DNA from: a virus
Lineage: Duplodnaviria > Heunggongvirae > Uroviricota > Caudoviricetes
Length of the DNA stretch: 16,650 bases
Virus record (IMG/VR): IMGVR_UViG_2737471869_000028
Coordinates: 1-16,650 of that record
Direction: 5' to 3' (one strand)
Shown here piece by piece: positions 6,895-13,965 of the stretch (position 1 is its first letter; the number at the start of each line of letters is the position of its first letter). The notes below the pieces were generated by a model. That model had not been told where the DNA came from, did not search any database, and was given only the letters and a program-made list of their open reading frames with translations. The position numbers and the translations under genes were made by a program.

Positions 6895-7278
6895 ATGACA
6901 CGCAGAACTCAGTTCAAAGGCAATTCTCGTTCTCGTCGTCGTGAGCGTTTAAAGGCAAAGGCATTAGCTAACGGCGTACTGGCCCGCGAAGAAGCAATAA
7001 GTTCAGAAGTATTACACCGCCCAACTCTAAGTAGAGCGCAGATTCAGGCTAAAGGTACTCACGAAACGCCTGATCGCATAGAAGACGCTAAGCCAATTAA
7101 GTTCATGGCACAGGACGTGATCTGGCAGCAGGAAGAATACAGACGCAATCTGGAGCGAGCGGCCATTGTGTACGCGAATGAGTTTGGACATAAGCAACCA
7201 GAAACTGGTGTATGTCTTCCAAATGTAGCTCTTTACGCGGCAGGCTACCGGAAATCCAAACAACTGACAGCAAGATGA
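6895..7278 (+). CDS. N: N-type antitermination protein (P22 gene 24-like), 128 aa from the internal ATG
   Basis: Arginine-rich motif near the N-terminus (MTRRTQFKGNSRSRRRERLKAKA); C-terminus PNVALYAAGYRKSKQLTAR parallels P22 N (PGVALYAAGHRKSKQITAR) as I recall it; ATG at 6895 has a strong CAGGAGG Shine-Dalgarno, whereas the track start at 6829 has none. Confidence 0.8.
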   Translation: MTRRTQFKGNSRSRRRERLKAKALANGVLAREEAISSEVLHRPTLSRAQIQAKGTHETPDRIEDAKPIKFMAQDVIWQQEEYRRNLERAAIVYANEFGHKQPETGVCLPNVALYAAGYRKSKQLTAR

Positions 7279-7336
7279 CTTGTGTTGGTCGCCAGAAAAT
7301 GAAATTAGGCAGCAAACCACTTATTTGAGGTGATAT

Positions 7337-7807
7337 ATGACAAAATCATGGAGCGTACCTTTTCCTGAATCAGAAACTGAACATGATGGAATGCCTGTTT
7401 TCTGGAGATTCCAGGCGACAGTTGAAGAAGATGGGATAAAAATATTCGCACTTCAATATATAGCTTTTCATCAGACAGAGCATTATGCATGGTTGGTTCC
7501 TGCGCATTGGATTGTTAATTTTAAACCAGCACCAAATCAGTGGTTACAGGAATGGAAACAAAGGAGAAATAGATATGCAATTAAGAAAGTAGCAAAAAAT
7601 GCAGAAAGATCTTTTGCATTCCCAACGAAGAAACTTGCCATTGAAAGTTTATTGCGCCGGAAGAAATACCATTTAATGAGAATCAAACAAGATTTGGCTG
7701 TTGTATCAACTCTTGTTGATGGTATGAAGAATATTGATACATCAACACCAGATATTGAATATAACTTTGGACACAACCAAGAAACAGAAAATTGGGTATT
7801 TTATTAG
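7337..7807 (+). CDS. Hypothetical protein (156 aa), AT-rich accessory gene immediately downstream of N
   Basis: ORF with GAGGTGA Shine-Dalgarno; no recognisable motif; occupies the ral/sieB-like position of the pL operon; composition looks AT-rich by eye. Confidence 0.5.
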   Translation: MTKSWSVPFPESETEHDGMPVFWRFQATVEEDGIKIFALQYIAFHQTEHYAWLVPAHWIVNFKPAPNQWLQEWKQRRNRYAIKKVAKNAERSFAFPTKKLAIESLLRRKKYHLMRIKQDLAVVSTLVDGMKNIDTSTPDIEYNFGHNQETENWVFY

Positions 7808-7911
7808 TACGAATAAGCACTGTGTATTCATTCCAACGAGTGAATACACGGAGCAATGTCGCTCGTAACTAAACAGGAGCCGACTTGTTCTGATTATTTG
7901 AAATCTTCTTT

Positions 7912-7936
7912 GCCCTCCAGTGTGAGGGCCTTTTTA
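7912..7936 (+). terminator. Rho-independent terminator (tL1-like) between the post-N gene and cIII
   Basis: Stem GCCCTC/GAGGGC (7912-7917 / 7924-7929) with 6-nt loop followed by CTTTTTAT. Confidence 0.5.
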
Positions 7937-8001
7937 TATGCATACCAATAACGCTTCACTCGAGGCGTTTTCGTTATGCAATCAAACAGAAGGAGCATCC
8001 T

Positions 8002-8172
8002 ATGCAACAGTTCGCTATTGCAGGGGCGGCATCGGTTCGCCCTTTCAACCCGATTTTATCGGTGCAGCATTCACGAAAAAACATTTTAACCGGAGCAGAC
8101 TTTAAACAACCAAGAATGAAAAGTTTGCTCGAAAAGCTTTGGGATATTTTGAAACAACAAGGCCGTCCATGA
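8002..8172 (+). CDS. cIII: CIII-like protein (FtsH-inhibitor family), 56 aa, below the ORF-track cutoff
   Basis: MQQFAIAGAA...SLLEKLWDILKQQGRP parallels lambda CIII (MQYAIAGWPVAG...RLIDILNQPGVP) as I recall it; AAGGAG Shine-Dalgarno 5 nt upstream of the ATG. Confidence 0.55.
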   Translation: MQQFAIAGAASVRPFNPILSVQHSRKNILTGADFKQPRMKSLLEKLWDILKQQGRP

Positions 8173-8276
8173 GTTTTACAGATAACTGGTCAGACGAAGA
8201 ATTCATTCGTCAGATGAACAAAATGCTCAATCAGCACAAAGAACAGGAGAAAGATGATGATTCTGACTCTGAATGA
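8169..8276 (+). CDS. Small ORF (35 aa) in the kil position
   Basis: ATGA overlap with the cIII-like stop (8169-8172); acidic C-terminus; weak ribosome binding site. Confidence 0.3.
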   Translation: MSFTDNWSDEEFIRQMNKMLNQHKEQEKDDDSDSE

Positions 8277-8565
8277 TAAGCGTGAAATATCGCAAATAAT
8301 CGCAAGTTTTACTGATGAAGATTACGAGCGAATCAACAGTGAAGTTGATCGCCTCTGCAAACGTTGCGACCCAATAAGCGAAATGCTTCGCTCATATAAA
8401 CCAGATGAACACACTAAGGACGCTATCGACTGGCTGGAAGATGATGACTGTAACTATCAGGAAAAAGCCGCTGAATGGTTCTGGGATGCAATAACCGAAA
8501 GAGTTAAGGCTGAATATGCCTTCGCAATATTCAAACGCAGACACATTTTTGGAGAAGCAGCATGA
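8254..8565 (+). CDS. Hypothetical protein (103 aa) upstream of recT
   Basis: ORF with AGGAGAAAG Shine-Dalgarno; its stop overlaps the recT start (ATGA at 8562-8565). Confidence 0.5.
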   Translation: MMILTLNDKREISQIIASFTDEDYERINSEVDRLCKRCDPISEMLRSYKPDEHTKDAIDWLEDDDCNYQEKAAEWFWDAITERVKAEYAFAIFKRRHIFGEAA

Positions 8566-9473
8566 GCAATATCGTTGAATTCGTTAAACAGCAAGAGCAG
8601 TTATTCTGCGGAGCATTGACTGAACAGACGGTGACATGGGCTAAGGAAAGCCAGTTTGCAATTCAGTATTTCCAGAAAAATGATTACCTGGCTAAAACAG
8701 CACTGGCAAATCCAACCAGCGCACAGAACGCCATCATCAATGTTGCGGCGATCGGCATCACCTTAAACCCGGCTAGCAAACTGGCTTATCTAGTTCCGCG
8801 CGACGGCATGGTGTGCCTTGATATCAGTTACATGGGATTGCTCCATATTGCAATGGAGTCTGGTGTTATCTCATGGGGTCAGGCAAAACTTGTTCATGCT
8901 AACGATACCTATGAGTCAAACGGGCTTGATAAAGCACCAACCCATAAATACAACGCCTTCGGTGATCGTGGTGATATCGTTGGCGTTTACTGCACAGTTA
9001 AGACGCCGGCAGGTGATTATCTAACGGAAGAGATGAGTCTGGCTGAAATTGAGGCTGTAAGGAAAACAAGCAAGGCAGCATTCAGCGATAAAGGACCATG
9101 GGTAAATCACTGGAATGAGATGGCGCGAAAGACGGTCGTAAAGCGTGCAAGCAAGTATTGGCCTAAGGCATCACGTCTTGATAGTGCTATTCACGTACTA
9201 AACGAAGAAGAAGGTGTATGGACTGAACCAGTTATGCCGCACAAATCAGAGGAAGATATCCGCGAAGATGAACGGAAACGCCAGCAGGAAATAACGGATA
9301 AAGCACAACTTCTTTGTGATGAAATGGCTCAGGCAGAAAACATGGATGATTTGAAGCGATATTTTGCAGAAGCATATCGCCTGACATCTGGAATGAAATT
9401 GCAGCAGAACATACAAGCCATTTACATAGAATGCAAAGCGAAACTGGAGGTTGCCAGTGAGCAAACTGTATGA
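8562..9473 (+). CDS. recT: RecT-family single-strand annealing protein
   Basis: 303 aa; GPWVNHWNEMARKTVVKRASKYWP matches the Rac RecT region GPWVTHWEEMAKKTAIRRLFKYLP as I recall it. Confidence 0.85.
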   Translation: MSNIVEFVKQQEQLFCGALTEQTVTWAKESQFAIQYFQKNDYLAKTALANPTSAQNAIINVAAIGITLNPASKLAYLVPRDGMVCLDISYMGLLHIAMESGVISWGQAKLVHANDTYESNGLDKAPTHKYNAFGDRGDIVGVYCTVKTPAGDYLTEEMSLAEIEAVRKTSKAAFSDKGPWVNHWNEMARKTVVKRASKYWPKASRLDSAIHVLNEEEGVWTEPVMPHKSEEDIREDERKRQQEITDKAQLLCDEMAQAENMDDLKRYFAEAYRLTSGMKLQQNIQAIYIECKAKLEVASEQTV

Positions 9474-9939
9474 AATAGCTAATGAATACGCAAAATTGAT
9501 GGATTCAGATTTAGAACCAGAGATGATTGCTGACACAATAGAAGGCATGGAAGGAGAATTTACCGATAAAATAGAGCAACTTCTTTCCGTCATTAAAAAT
9601 GAATCTGGTTATGCTGAACGCCTCAAGGAAGAGGCAAAGTCACTGAATGAGCGAGCCGCAGTAATTCAAAATAAGATTGACAGCATCAAATCATATATAG
9701 CGTCATCGCTTGAAATGGTTGGCAAGAAAAATATTCGAGCAGGTATTCACCAGGTAACAATCCGCAAACCGTCAGAAATTGTAGAAATCATCGACTCAAG
9801 CGCCCTTCCTCCTGAATACGTTGAGTTTGAAACGACAATTAAAGCCGACAAACTGGCAATCAAGCACCAACTAAAAGCAGGAATAAATATCCCAGGCGCT
9901 CAACTCAAGGTTGGGAAACCTTCACTTCTTATCAAATAA
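9457..9939 (+). CDS. Coiled-coil recombination-associated protein (Gp157-like / Gam-like), probable GTG start
   Basis: About 160 aa with a helical N-terminal half and beta-rich C-terminal half, the architecture of siphovirus Gp157-family proteins commonly found beside RecT; GGAGG Shine-Dalgarno 6 nt upstream of the GTG at 9457 (the track uses TTG at 9451). Confidence 0.4.
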   Translation: MSKLYEIANEYAKLMDSDLEPEMIADTIEGMEGEFTDKIEQLLSVIKNESGYAERLKEEAKSLNERAAVIQNKIDSIKSYIASSLEMVGKKNIRAGIHQVTIRKPSEIVEIIDSSALPPEYVEFETTIKADKLAIKHQLKAGINIPGAQLKVGKPSLLIK

Positions 9940-9950
9940 CGGTATCGCCT

Positions 9951-10265
9951 ATGAAAAAGACTCCATGGGAGAAATGGGAAGTCGATTTCTTGCGCGAAGT
10001 AGCGGCGACAATGCCAGTTGAAGTTATCGCTGAAAAACTGGAAAGGACTGAAAAAGCAGTAATGGCGAAAGCAACAAGGATTGGCGCTGACATTGTTAGC
10101 CGACTTCGTGGAAGACGATGGACAAGAGCCGAAGTATCACTTTTCGGTAAGTTCTCCGCGGAAGAAATAGCAATTGCAACCTGCCGCTCAATTTATTCAG
10201 TAAGAGCTATGCGATACAAGCTAAAAAAACTCGATGAAGAAAGAGCAGGCATACGAATAAATTAA
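9951..10265 (+). CDS. Hypothetical protein with two tandem helix-turn-helix-like repeats (104 aa)
   Basis: Internal repeat: W-x-x-W-EVDFL...EVIAEKLERTEKAV and W-TRAEVSLF...EIAIATCRSIYSV; basic C-terminus. Confidence 0.45.
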   Translation: MKKTPWEKWEVDFLREVAATMPVEVIAEKLERTEKAVMAKATRIGADIVSRLRGRRWTRAEVSLFGKFSAEEIAIATCRSIYSVRAMRYKLKKLDEERAGIRIN

Positions 10266-10281
10266 CATGGAGTAATTAACA

Positions 10282-10563
10282 ATGAAGCTAAACATCGACC
10301 TCGGAAAATACGTTATTACCGGAACCAAACACGATCTGATTCTTAGCGAAAGAGGAATTATCAAAGAAGGCGAGAATGCAGGGAAAGAAACACTAAGCCG
10401 TATCGGTTATTACAGCAAGTTTGAGCATCTGGTTAAAGAGTTATGCAACCGTGAAATCCTGTTATCTCAGGCGCAGACGCTACAGGATATTCAGCAGCAT
10501 ATCGAGACTTTAGGTGTGTCACTTAGCATGGCTATTGACCAGTTCGTGGAGAGTAAATCATGA
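10282..10563 (+). CDS. Hypothetical protein (93 aa)
   Basis: ORF with GGAG Shine-Dalgarno; its stop overlaps the next small ORF start (ATGA at 10560-10563). Confidence 0.45.
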
Positions 10564-10727
10564 GAGGACTTGCATACAATCCCGGCATTCTTCCGGCAGA
10601 AATGATTATTCGCCAGCGCGTAAAGCCAATGCCATCGAGAGAGGAATTGCTTAAGAGAAAGAGTTTCGGTTCTGTTAATGGCAACAAATATCTTAATGCG
10701 ATGTGGCGCAAAGGAGGCAACCAGTGA
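10560..10727 (+). CDS. Small ORF (55 aa), below the ORF-track cutoff
   Basis: Begins at the ATGA overlap with the previous gene and ends with a TGA overlapping the GTG start of the Ea22-like gene (GTGA at 10724-10727). Confidence 0.35.
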
Positions 10728-11413
10728 GCAAGATTGATTATCAGGCACTGCGTGCTAAGGCAGAAAAAGCAACGTGTGGCGAGTGGTCGCTCGAATATGG
10801 AGAGGGCCGATTTGATGGTGATGATGCGCTAATTCATCGCGAGGCTGCTGGATATATTCCCATTTGCAGAATTGAAGGAGCGCATCCTGAAAGCGGTTTC
10901 GATGAAGATTTCCAAATGGAACAGCAGGCCAATGCTGAATTCATCGCCGCAGCCAATCCAGCTACCGTCTTGGCGCTGCTGGATGAGCTGGAAAGAAACC
11001 AGCAATACATAAAACGCCGCGATCAGGAGAACGAGGAAATTGCGCTAACTGTAGGGAAGCTGCGTGTTGAGCTGGAAGCCGCAGAGAAGCGCAACGCAAA
11101 ATTACAAAGCGAGAATGCATACATCCGCAACCGGTTCAAAGAGCTGGACCTGTTAATCGGGAAAAACATTCTGGTCATGCAGGCTGCGATTATCGAATGG
11201 CAGGCAACTGGCGACGCTAAAAGCGGACTGGCATGGATTTATAACACACTGTTTGGCCCAGGCGAATTGCCGGACGAATCTGAGAAAGATGCTCAGGCCT
11301 ACTTTAATCGCAAATATGCACCGATTGACGAAAAGCTTATGGAGCTTCACAAGTGGTTTTGGGAACAAAGTGAAGCCGAGCGCGCCGCTGGCATTCGCAT
11401 CAAAGGAGAGTGA
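10724..11413 (+). CDS. Ead/Ea22-like protein, GTG start
   Basis: N-terminus [20 protein letters not shown] is the typical Ead/Ea22 start; AAGGAGG Shine-Dalgarno 6 nt upstream of the GTG at 10724; coiled-coil central region. Confidence 0.65.
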
Positions 11414-11414
11414 T

Positions 11415-11780
11415 ATGGCACTGACGAAAAAACAACGTGCAGAGCTGCGCATGAAGTTCGGCGGTCGCTGTGCTTATTGCGGCTGCGAACTTCGCGAAAA
11501 GTGGCATGCAGACCATGTAAAACCGGTCATTCGTTTTGCTGGAAATATGCTTCACCAGGAACGTGACGATATATCCAACATGGTTCCGGCATGCCACCCA
11601 TGCAATCTGCACAAGCATTGCAGTAGCCTGGAAGATTATCGGCGAATTATCAGTGATGGGCGTCGTGAATTCCTTGCGTCCGGGAAAGGCAAAGCGCTGG
11701 TTCGTATGGGATTGGTTGAAATGAAATCTGACCCGGTTGTGTTCTGGTTTGAAAAATATCAAGAAGGGGCTACGGCATGA
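11415..11780 (+). CDS. HNH endonuclease-family protein (122 aa from the internal ATG)
   Basis: CAYCGCEL...WHADHVKPV...NMVPACHPCNLHK gives the Cys-rich HNH motif; AAAGGAG Shine-Dalgarno before the ATG at 11415; the track ORF start at 11253 lies inside the Ea22-like gene. Confidence 0.75.
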   Translation: MALTKKQRAELRMKFGGRCAYCGCELREKWHADHVKPVIRFAGNMLHQERDDISNMVPACHPCNLHKHCSSLEDYRRIISDGRREFLASGKGKALVRMGLVEMKSDPVVFWFEKYQEGATA

Positions 11781-12463
11781 CCACTATTACCAAAGAACGC
11801 CTGCTGACAATCCAGCAGTGGCGCGAAACATATGGACTGGGTAGCAACGTTGTACTGCCAGCAGAAGAAGCGGAAGAACTGGCACGAATTGCGCTGGCAT
11901 CGCTGGAAGCGGAGCCTGTTGCTTATATTTTCAAACATCCGGCCGGGAAATTATTCTGGGCTTTAACAGATGAAAGCAATAAAGAGCAAGCGGACGTTAT
12001 TCCTGTTTATGCTGCCGCGCCTGCGTCGGTTGTGCCGGATAATGCATCAGAGCCTCTTGCTTATGCTTACAAAGAGCTTACGCCTGAGATTATGCGCAAC
12101 CATTTAGCTGTATTCGAGCGATATGGAATAGCCCCAAACGATAGCTCTACCACAATTCAGGCACTGCGAATCGCGCTGGATGGTATAGAGCGGAGCGACG
12201 CCATGCTTCATGGTGCCGAACCTGTAAGCCAAACTTACAAGTTTCCAGTTAATACACCTTGCCAAGATGCGCCAGCCCATATCTGGCTGCAAACAGCTGG
12301 AGTATGGCCAGAAGATGGCGAGTTGAGCGAATTAACGTGGTGCAGCCACAATCAGCACCATGATGACACGCTATATGTTCGAGCTGACTTGGTAAATGGC
12401 AATTCTCCGGTAACTCCGGATGGTTGGATAAGCTGTAGTGAGCGAATGCCAAAAGATGGTTAG
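11777..12463 (+). CDS. DUF551-family protein, N-terminal 228 aa, ending at an in-frame TAG that interrupts the DUF551 domain
   Basis: ATGA overlap with the HNH stop; the protein ends WISCSERMPKDG at the TAG (12461-12463), and the same frame continues to 12625 encoding the remainder of the DUF551 C-terminal signature. Confidence 0.55.
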   Translation: MTTITKERLLTIQQWRETYGLGSNVVLPAEEAEELARIALASLEAEPVAYIFKHPAGKLFWALTDESNKEQADVIPVYAAAPASVVPDNASEPLAYAYKELTPEIMRNHLAVFERYGIAPNDSSTTIQALRIALDGIERSDAMLHGAEPVSQTYKFPVNTPCQDAPAHIWLQTAGVWPEDGELSELTWCSHNQHHDDTLYVRADLVNGNSPVTPDGWISCSERMPKDG

Positions 12464-12624
12464 CACGTAATTATTTTATGTGATGGCGCATTCGTTCTTT
12501 ATGCGCAATATCGAGACAGTGAGTTTTTTGATGTTGTCCGCAATGGTGAGGAGTTCTTCGAAACGCAGAGCCGCAATGTAACCCACTGGGTGCCGCTACC
12601 GGAGCCACCGCAGGAGGTGAAGTG

Positions 12625-12909
12625 ATGGACTCCTTCGCGAAATATACGATTATTGACTGGATAACCTTCCTTCAGGTTTTGCTCATCTGGTTTTATATGG
12701 CTTACAGGAGTGGACAGTGGATTGTCAGTGTAGCCTGTAGCAAGGGATGGCGTTGGTGGAACAGAAAGAATAAAAAAGCACTGGCATTGGATTCGCTTTA
12801 CGAAGCATTCAATCTTAACAGTCTTCAGCCTGGTTCTGTCATTGTAGTCACCACTCAAAGCGGCATGACGATACAAATTCACAAGCCAAAGGAGGAAGGT
12901 CGTGGCTAA
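12625..12909 (+). CDS. Small membrane protein (94 aa)
   Basis: N-terminal hydrophobic helix (YTIIDWITFLQVLLIWFYMAY); the ATG at 12625 overlaps the TGA that closes the DUF551 reading frame. Confidence 0.45.
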   Translation: MDSFAKYTIIDWITFLQVLLIWFYMAYRSGQWIVSVACSKGWRWWNRKNKKALALDSLYEAFNLNSLQPGSVIVVTTQSGMTIQIHKPKEEGRG

Positions 12910-13012
12910 CCTGCAACTTGCCGTCAAAGGTGAATACTTCACAGATAGTTTCCCCCAAATTTGGGGAAAATCCCGAATGGCGCGGCTTACAGCAAGATAA
13001 GGCCTACATGAT

Positions 13013-13042
13013 TTGACAAATCCGCATTAACGGGGCTATATT
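13013..13042 (+). promoter_or_regulatory. Sigma70-type promoter upstream of the antirepressor gene
   Basis: TTGACA (13013-13018), 18-bp spacer, TATATT (13037-13042). Confidence 0.5.
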
Positions 13043-13256
13043 CCGCTTCATGGTGCTGAACACACCTTCGAAAGCGGAAACCGCACCCGTCAGTCATGCG
13101 GATTTTTTATGTCCATTTTTCAGATATGGTCGGGTAGCGCGTATACCGAAAAACAGCCGCAAGGCTAAGGATGCGGGCCGAACTTTCGACGGTGTTCAAG
13201 TACCTGACCACCCTGCTGAACACAGGGTAATCTGAACGAATCGAAAGGACATAAAA

Positions 13257-13880
13257 ATGACCAGTCAACTCATCCCCGTATTCAACGGCACTATCGCCAA
13301 CGAAACAGCCCTACTCTGCAATGCCCGCGATCTGCATGCTTTTTTAGGCGTGAAAAAGGTGTTTGCGGCATGGATTACAAATCGCATTTCAGAATACGAA
13401 TTCATTGAAAATCAAGACTATATTTTGCTTTCCAATTTGGGAAAGCAAACATCTGGTAGAGGCGGTCACAACCGCAAGGATTACCACCTCACCCTCGACA
13501 CAGCCAAAGAACTGGCGATGGTGGAGCGCAACGAAAAAGGCCGCCAGATACGCCGATACTTCATCGAGTGCGAGAAAAAACTTCGCAGCATGCAACCAGC
13601 GCAGCAATTCACAGACGAGGAAATCATCCTCCTTTGCTACATGCAGGTACAGATGGAGAATGCGCAGGACATCTGCAAACGCCTGTACCCGATAATGAAG
13701 GAACTTAACTCATCATACGCGAGTAAGCTGTATGACATTGCGTTTGAAACCTTCTATGCGGTGACGAAAAACAGAGATGTACTGCTCAGGGAGGCGACAC
13801 GACTTGACCAGACAAGCGCCGTTTTCGAACGGGCAAGACCAATGTTAAAAAGCCTTCGGGCGAGACAATTCGAATTTTAA
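13257..13880 (+). CDS. Antirepressor-like protein (AntA/Bro-N-type N-terminal domain)
   Basis: 207 aa; N-terminal region (LLCNARDLHAFLGVKKVFAAWITNRISEYEFIENQDYILL...TLDTAKELAM) has the pattern of phage antirepressor N-terminal domains; AAGGA Shine-Dalgarno; own promoter and terminator. Confidence 0.6.
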   Translation: MTSQLIPVFNGTIANETALLCNARDLHAFLGVKKVFAAWITNRISEYEFIENQDYILLSNLGKQTSGRGGHNRKDYHLTLDTAKELAMVERNEKGRQIRRYFIECEKKLRSMQPAQQFTDEEIILLCYMQVQMENAQDICKRLYPIMKELNSSYASKLYDIAFETFYAVTKNRDVLLREATRLDQTSAVFERARPMLKSLRARQFEF

Positions 13881-13884
13881 TCAT

Positions 13885-13908
13885 CAAAGGAGCTTCGGCT
13901 CCTTTTTT
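13885..13908 (+). terminator. Rho-independent terminator downstream of the antirepressor gene
   Basis: Stem AGGAGC/GCTCCT (13888-13893 / 13898-13903) with UUCG tetraloop, followed by TTTTT. Confidence 0.7.
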
Positions 13909-13965
13909 GTTGGAGAAAAATCAACCACTACTCGTTCCCTTGCGAGTAATTGCGGAGACTTTGCG

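Follow-up and report, generated by a model that had tools for sequence, protein, structure and literature searches.

ORF156, an early gene shared by phages HK97 and 933W, as one allele of an exchangeable cassette in a lambdoid prophage and a candidate counter-defense factor

The gene described here, ORF156, is located at positions 7337 to 7807 of a DNA stretch of 16,650 nucleotides (the window), which is the IMG/VR virus record IMGVR_UViG_2737471869_000028 (Caudoviricetes), positions 1 to 16,650. The window represents the early-left arm of a lambdoid prophage, and its + strand runs in the direction of the leftward promoter pL. Judged from sequence comparison, ORF156 is a real phage gene under purifying selection and is one allele of a precisely bounded, exchangeable cassette between the antiterminator gene N and a conserved hairpin. 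Its product may be an early host-interference or counter-defense protein. An earlier note made from the DNA alone had described the open reading frame (ORF) as an AT-rich orphan gene in the slot of ral and the superinfection-exclusion genes, with a possible anti-restriction or exclusion function.

The sequence of ORF156 is already known from the annotated genomes of HK97 and 933W, and it belongs to a known kind, the accessory genes exchanged as cassettes in the variable N-to-tL (Ral) region of lambdoid phages. The exact boundaries of the cassette, the catalog of alternative alleles, a wider family confined to phages and a confident predicted structure that has no solved relative are new. The gene is carried by the model phage HK97 and by the clinically important Shiga toxin phages 933W and H-19B. 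The elements that define the cassette are as follows.

6895..7278, + strand: antiterminator gene N of the H-19B / 933W / HK97 type (Pfam N_peptide, E = 1.6e-15)
7281..7328, + strand: untranslated remnant of a lambda-type N C-terminus, left junction, reading CVGRQKMKLGSKPLI and then a stop codon
7327..7333, + strand: strong Shine-Dalgarno (SD) sequence GAGGTGA, which serves ORF156 and belongs to the conserved left junction
7337..7807, + strand: ORF156, ATG start, 156 amino acid residues
7817..7854, + strand: hairpin, right junction, with perfect 9-bp arms GTGTATTCA (7822-7830) and TGAATACAC (7841-7849)
7912..7936, + strand: intrinsic terminator GCCCTC-CAGTGT-GAGGGC followed by a T-run, with a 6-bp GC-rich stem

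Boundaries of the cassette

The window was aligned with the phages mEp234 and HK97. The mEp234 sequence matches the window exactly through the ATG at 7337 and does so again from GCACTGTGTATTCA (7817) onward, while between these shared flanks it contains an unrelated gene of about 83-91 codons. HK97 likewise matches on the left up to the ATG. The SD sequence of ORF156 is shared with the unrelated mEp234 gene, and the hairpin is identical in mEp234 and HK97. It follows that the SD sequence and the start codon form the left junction of the cassette, and that the hairpin with the terminator forms the right junction. With one junction at a start codon and the other at a conserved hairpin, the locus provides a clean example of the swapping of early accessory genes in lambdoid phages.

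The flanking elements that the earlier note had listed were all recovered. The N-tail remnant is a recognizable relic of the C-terminus of lambda N, CSGRQKIKGKSIPLI followed by a stop codon; its frame differs from that of the resident N, which stops at 7278. The perfect 9-bp inverted repeat at 7822-7849 is present, and its arms extend to an RNA stem of 12 bp. The terminator at 7912-7936 is the first intrinsic terminator after pL and N in the window, and the HK97 and mEp234 records label the same sequence as a putative and a rho-independent terminator, respectively. The 141-nt stretch 7805-7945, which includes both structures, folds far better than shuffled sequences (z = -5.0). This hairpin-terminator module is nearly base-for-base identical to the ral-ea10 intergenic region of lambda (33,905-34,087), which is probably the tL2 terminator region of Luk and Szybalski. 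Module 7805-7945 is the constant right-hand junction for all alleles of the cassette. The first hairpin (7817-7854) could be an RNA-processing site, a pause site or a mere recombination junction.

The arrangement recurs in E. coli prophages. Among 68 assessable prophage loci of E. coli with ORF156, the N-tail remnant was found upstream in 54 and the hairpin directly downstream in 62. The reading frame itself is maintained by selection, and the confident fold predicted from the family alignment (see below) also speaks for a real gene. In comparison with the 63%-identical homologue of phage Bas81, the nonsynonymous divergence (pN) is 0.21 while the synonymous divergence (pS) is 0.80 and saturated, which indicates purifying selection on the ORF156 frame.

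Genes that replace ORF156 in the slot

The hairpin was used as an anchor to fetch at least 120 IMG/VR loci, of which 97 had enough upstream sequence to be assessed. The genes located between N and the hairpin, within 1.6 kb upstream of the latter, were clustered. More than 15 unrelated gene families occupy the slot among the 97 loci listed, including the following.

ORF156: 17 loci
Ral (PF11058): 14 loci
Nmad5-domain protein (PF18757): 13 loci
SieB (PF14163), two types: 8 and 5 loci, on the opposite strand
orf184 (cluster 32): 107 residues, N-terminus MEALVVERSEDGYWT, on the pL strand
DUF7446 protein
Membrane protein of 149 residues with two transmembrane segments
Proteins of 293, 98, 91, 88, 67 and 63 residues without a Pfam match

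Several of these alleles can be stacked in a single phage. The locus thus has the variable genes between conserved flanks that characterize the lambdoid N-to-tL hot spot, or "Ral accessory region". In other prophages this N gene and this hairpin enclose Ral or SieB, so that the placement of ORF156 in the ral/sie slot, as proposed in the earlier note, holds. In the Salmonella phage SPN9CC the slot is occupied by SieB after a related N. Few accessory regions of lambdoid phages vary as much as this slot, whose known alleles include an anti-restriction protein (Ral), an exclusion protein (SieB) and a trigger of abortive infection. The last of these is orf184, which comes from a ral-containing accessory region and acts as the trigger of the gop-beta-cII abortive system (Silas et al. 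2023, bioRxiv 10.1101/2023.04.06.535777). ORF156 is absent from the supplements of the follow-up paper of the same group.

The comparison with individual alleles is instructive. Ral is located in the same slot and on the same strand, between N and a matching hairpin-terminator module, and it is likewise small, soluble and expressed from pL. However, Ral has 66 residues and is rich in Cys, while ORF156 has 156 residues and no Cys, and no sequence similarity is found between them. The Ral profile (PF11058) does not match ORF156, whereas the Ral allele of the same slot scores E = 2.2e-48. Ral, a restriction alleviation protein, acts on type I methyltransferases. SieB can likewise fill this hot spot, immediately following N, but it is a membrane protein encoded on the opposite strand, while ORF156 is co-oriented with pL, is not preceded by a promoter-like site and has no hydrophobic segments. 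The sieB gene has its own promoter. The SieB profile (PF14163) gave no Pfam match with ORF156, and membrane segments were not found in it. The allele orf184 is, like ORF156, an uncharacterized accessory gene on the pL strand; its sequence is unrelated and its length differs (107 versus 156 residues).

The gene is not restricted to this slot. In prophages of Brenneria alni and Pectobacterium betavasculorum a close homologue is the last gene before xis/int and does not adjoin N. The gene therefore shifts from one accessory slot of the leftward operon to another.

Occurrence of the gene

ORF156 is 98.5-100% identical in DNA to gene 45 of HK97 (Gp45, NP_037731) and to L0079 of 933W (AAD25424). In both phages it occurs in the same place after N, with the same flanking hairpin and terminator, and no substantial difference from ORF156 was found. 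These records provide no function, since the gene is annotated only as Gp45 or as a hypothetical protein. The sequence is also present in H-19B, where it has no annotation. The product gp17 of H-19B was considered as an equivalent and rejected: the record AF034975 annotates no feature under ORF156, and gp17 belongs to the adjoining inserted segment.

In GenBank, ORF156 was found in 82 phage records, as compared with 98 that contain a full-length N of this type. A survey of 5426 complete E. coli genomes showed it in 598, with a maximum of four copies in any one genome, and the annotation there is always "hypothetical protein". The close homologues, with 55-85% identity, occur only in prophages of Enterobacterales (Pectobacterium, Brenneria, Rosenbergiella, Cronobacter). 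Species-representative genomes scanned with the close alignment gave 7 loci, again only in Enterobacterales, and the IMG/VR scan for ORF156 itself gave only E. coli prophages with 100% identity.

The sequence searches support the statement of the earlier note that the protein has no recognizable motif. ORF156 had no match in Pfam even at E ≤ 10 and nothing meaningful in NCBIfam or among PDB sequences. The single PADLOC-DB match, Cas1_II with E = 0.018 and 12 bits, is noise. A match to phrog_1636 was obtained, with E = 2.7e-112 over residues 1-156 of 156, and this PHROG carries the label "unknown function". ORF156, HK97 gp45 and L0079 were mentioned nowhere in the literature searched.

Base composition and gene transfer

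The GC content of ORF156 is 35.7%, the lowest of the genes in the window, as compared with 45.7% for the whole window, in agreement with the earlier note. Only 0.4% of the 471-bp segments are as AT-rich as ORF156, and the minimum of the window (35.0%) falls inside the gene. Its GC content at third codon positions is 26.8%; for the other genes only cro (0.32) is below about 0.34, and most are in the range 0.34-0.57.

This composition is not peculiar to ORF156. Every allele of the slot has a lower GC content (35-45%) than N (50%), and in 12 of 12 diverse loci the ORF156 family member falls 2-11 GC points short of the DNA around it. The low GC is therefore a trait of the slot cargo and of the family, and by itself it is not evidence of recent transfer into this phage. 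Gene transfer is shown independently, by the exchange of cassettes. Of the proposal that ORF156 is a horizontally acquired accessory gene, exchangeability is thus upheld by the different gene between the same flanks in mEp234, while the composition by itself does not speak for a recent acquisition. The AT-richness of the family holds whatever the GC content of the host (32-57%). Amino acid composition, selection for AT-rich mRNA and xenogeneic silencing are candidate causes. A promoter-like site, TACACA-17-TAAAAT, was noticed on the - strand at 7826-7798 in the hairpin region, directed antisense into ORF156; it may reflect the AT-richness alone.

Transcription

The elements relevant to the transcription of ORF156 are located upstream of N.

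6432-6451: strong terminator, closing a three-gene insert and insulating the N/ORF156 region from the cI operon
6654..6682, + strand: putative pL-like promoter TTGCCA-17-TAAAGT, from the consensus scan and sequence reading
6751..6765, + strand: nutL boxB-like hairpin GCGCTGACAAAGCGC, from sequence reading

Repeated ATTTATCATT motifs, similar to operators, are found at the pL-like promoter, and its position agrees with that of the annotated pL of mEp234, about 250 nt upstream of N. The nutL annotated in 933W is located roughly 170-230 nt upstream of N, in a region that matches the hairpin at 6751..6765; by comparison with nut sites of the H-19B type, this hairpin is probably boxB. The N gene is 100% identical in nucleotide sequence to that of H-19B.

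ORF156 is co-oriented with pL, and its strong SD sequence is encoded by the junction. A consensus scan found no sigma-70-like promoter on the + strand at 6682-8175. There is no terminator between N and ORF156; the only match upstream of the ORF is weak and located inside the coding sequence of N (7197-7209). ORF156 has no promoter of its own, receives its SD sequence from the junction and lies ahead of the first intrinsic terminator that transcription from pL would meet; its synthesis would therefore accompany that of N. We infer that ORF156 is co-transcribed with N from pL immediately on infection or induction, within the first minutes, and is silent in the lysogen.

The earlier suggestion of a possible moron did not hold in the classical sense, as a promoter immediately upstream of ORF156 was not found on the + strand in the consensus scan and the gene is in line with pL. 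The atypical composition and the downstream terminator of a moron are both present; the terminator, though, belongs to the conserved junction common to all alleles.

The protein and its relatives

A profile search of 1.84 billion representative proteins gave 88 matches, mostly of 130-155 residues and 20-27% identical to ORF156 over almost the whole length. The wider family is divided among PHROGs 1636, 13631 and 25384, none of which has an assigned function. All 61 diverse relatives match phrog_1636 and 51 of them also match phrog_13631, while Pfam domains were found in none of the relatives. Two long profile matches, P0062 and P0080, were considered as domain fusions and rejected as repetitive false positives, so that they carry no Rosetta-stone information.

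The family occurs in phages and prophages only, and the distant relatives are located in early regions. Their neighbors include genes for replication (DUF1376, IstB-like) and recombination (RecT-like, RusA-like, RdgC), SSB, DNA methylase, Lar-like protein and integrase, and a constant partner gene was not found in these neighborhoods. In three loci, Bas81 (L007), L092 and L096, the gene opens an operon whose neighbors on the other side point away from it; in L092 and L096 these divergent neighbors are a cro-like/replication operon. This again points to a promoter-proximal, early position.

The residues G33, T47, K87, R91, A94, A101, K109 and F155 are invariant across the family, and an [H/K/R]-E-T motif is conserved. 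The reading of H-E-T as a catalytic "HxT" site of the 2H type was rejected, since the His is replaced by Lys or Arg in many members. A distant subfamily conserves H27, C31 and C35 (HETPCFHFC), while the E. coli branch has no cysteine; a metal site may exist in only part of the family. A zinc site in ORF156 was rejected because the Cys pair of that subfamily is absent and the protein contains 0 Cys.

An AlphaFold prediction with the close homologues only gave a pLDDT of 55 and was discarded. With 42 diverse sequences a confident model was obtained (pLDDT 91.7, pTM 0.79), with the following predicted elements.

Residues 19-30 and 33-46: long beta-hairpin, with a third strand at 50-55
Residues 83-86: short strand, accompanied by two short helices
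Residues 98-130: amphipathic helix of 33 residues, then an ordered C-terminal tail

No match to the model was found among solved structures, and PDB profile searches with three family alignments gave only noise (E ≥ 0.07). Small beta-barrel folds that bind nucleic acid or RNA polymerase (Tudor, KOW, chromo, AP2) were among the candidates considered for structural superposition. In BFVD only uncharacterized proteins were matched, from phages of Erwinia (phiEa2809), Tenacibaculum, Sinorhizobium, Rhizobium, Delftia and Cellulophaga. Phage phiEa2809 is presumably a virulent ViI-like phage.

The protein is predicted to be soluble, the maximum of its Kyte-Doolittle profile (19 residues) being 0.56, with no membrane segment. 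Its isoelectric point (pI) is 9.1. The ends are acidic and the N-terminal half is an acidic, predicted beta-sheet region, while residues 61-120 are very basic, with 17 Lys or Arg and a pI of 11.1. DNA mimics with anti-restriction activity, such as Ocr and ArdA, are strongly acidic; ORF156 with its pI of 9.1 is not, and no structural match was found.

Functional implications

The combined properties allow us to propose, with a confidence that falls somewhat short of even, that ORF156 may be a stoichiometric early host-interference or counter-defense protein. The product would be small, soluble and cytoplasmic, and it would act through its basic face by binding nucleic acid or a host or defense protein that handles nucleic acid. 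This mode is proposed by analogy with other pL-strand alleles of the slot, for example Ral. The distribution of the gene among phages with this N type and E. coli genomes, together with its pN and pS, further shows that it is dispensable and yet under selection. Counter-defense or host takeover is favored over prophage exclusion because the protein is soluble and basic, would be expressed early from pL, and has neither a promoter of its own nor a membrane segment. In a more far-reaching and rather doubtful extension, ORF156 could be the founding member, accessible in E. coli, of a new and widespread immediate-early counter-defense family that has a fold not represented in the PDB and neutralizes a host immune component by binding it directly. 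If true, this role would explain why Shiga toxin phages such as 933W, and 11% of complete E. coli genomes, carry the gene.

Several points weigh against a host-interference or counter-defense role. The literature searched holds no experimental datum on ORF156 or any relative, and the set of 200 accessory genes that Silas et al. screened did not include ORF156 (bioRxiv 10.1101/2023.04.06.535777). Membership of the hot spot is guilt by association, as the slot also holds defense genes (SieB) and genes of unknown role. A promoter that is weak or does not depend on sigma-70 may escape the consensus-based scan. The role of the conserved charged residues could lie in the structure and not in ligand binding. 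The broad host range, from Proteobacteria to Bacteroidota, and the replication and recombination neighbors would fit a phage-intrinsic protein that binds DNA or RNA equally well.

Such an intrinsic protein would modulate the phage's own early transcription, replication or recombination. The very basic central region with the invariant K87, R91 and K109 is consistent with it, as is the occurrence of the family in phages of several bacterial phyla, which points to a universal target. The neighbors include replication, recombination, methylase and SSB genes, and in L092 and L096 the gene diverges from a cro-like gene, which is the place expected of a repressor-type regulator. However, unrelated cassettes freely take the place of ORF156 in phages that are nearly identical elsewhere, and therefore no core process depends on it. 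A helix-turn-helix (HTH) or other known DNA-binding motif was not found, nor was a conserved partner gene or target site. We consider this explanation unlikely. A protein that sequesters or destroys an immune signaling nucleotide, by the logic of the Tad and Acb proteins, would agree with the stand-alone size of about 150 residues, the broad distribution in temperate and lytic phages, the inferred early expression, and the conservation of K87, R91, K109, F95, F155 and the [H/K/R]-E-T motif. The variable His of this motif speaks against a catalytic 2H-type site and there is no evidence of oligomerization, so a ligand sponge or enzyme is very improbable.

The remaining explanation is a defense or superinfection-exclusion gene expressed by the prophage, that is, a classical moron that is active in the lysogen and, like SieB, acts against other phages by blocking them. 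SieB alleles do occur in the same N-to-hairpin slot, including that of SPN9CC; ORF156 is AT-rich, as many morons are, is followed by a terminator, and is found very often in E. coli prophages, up to four times in one genome. But SieB is on the opposite strand, while ORF156 runs in the direction of pL without a promoter-like site ahead of it, and the strong terminator at 6432-6451 stands between ORF156 and the cI transcript of the lysogen. The protein has no membrane segment and no PADLOC match, and structural relatives are found in the presumably virulent phiEa2809 and in other apparently lytic phages. Exclusion is therefore the less likely half of the earlier anti-restriction or exclusion proposal, and a lysogen-expressed moron seems improbable. 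As regards a counter-defense role, the predicted fold and the multi-phylum family make ORF156 a well-defined candidate for anti-defense screens and structure determination rather than a surprise.

Other genes of the window

The remaining features of the window are those of a lambdoid early region.

1028-4127, - strand: replication genes, cII and cro
4241-4945: cI-like repressor
5082-6423: HigB-like toxin, HTH protein and a 134-residue ORF, between cI and pL/N
Downstream of ORF156: cIII-like ORF, RecT, Gp157 and more early genes, then xis and int (13966-15232)

The insert at 5082-6451 contains a HigB-like toxin of the RelE family with 95 residues (PF09907, E = 4.5e-30). The gene of a 218-residue HTH protein, likely the antitoxin, overlaps that of the toxin. 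The 134-residue ORF has a GC content of 37% and no match. The same rexAB-type slot contains a different toxin with a HicB-like antitoxin in mEp234 and stk in 933W.

Near the xis/int end of the prophage, a match to sRNA-Xcc1 (RF02221) at the Rfam gathering level was found at 13128-13217 on the + strand (64.3 bits, E = 6.7e-10), just 5' of a 207-residue ORF (13257-13880). After the integrase gene (14162-15232) the GC content steps from about 45% to 53-55%; the rise is at about 15400, where host DNA probably begins. A lipoprotein-like ORF extends to the end of the window (15367-16650), and the step probably marks the prophage-host junction.
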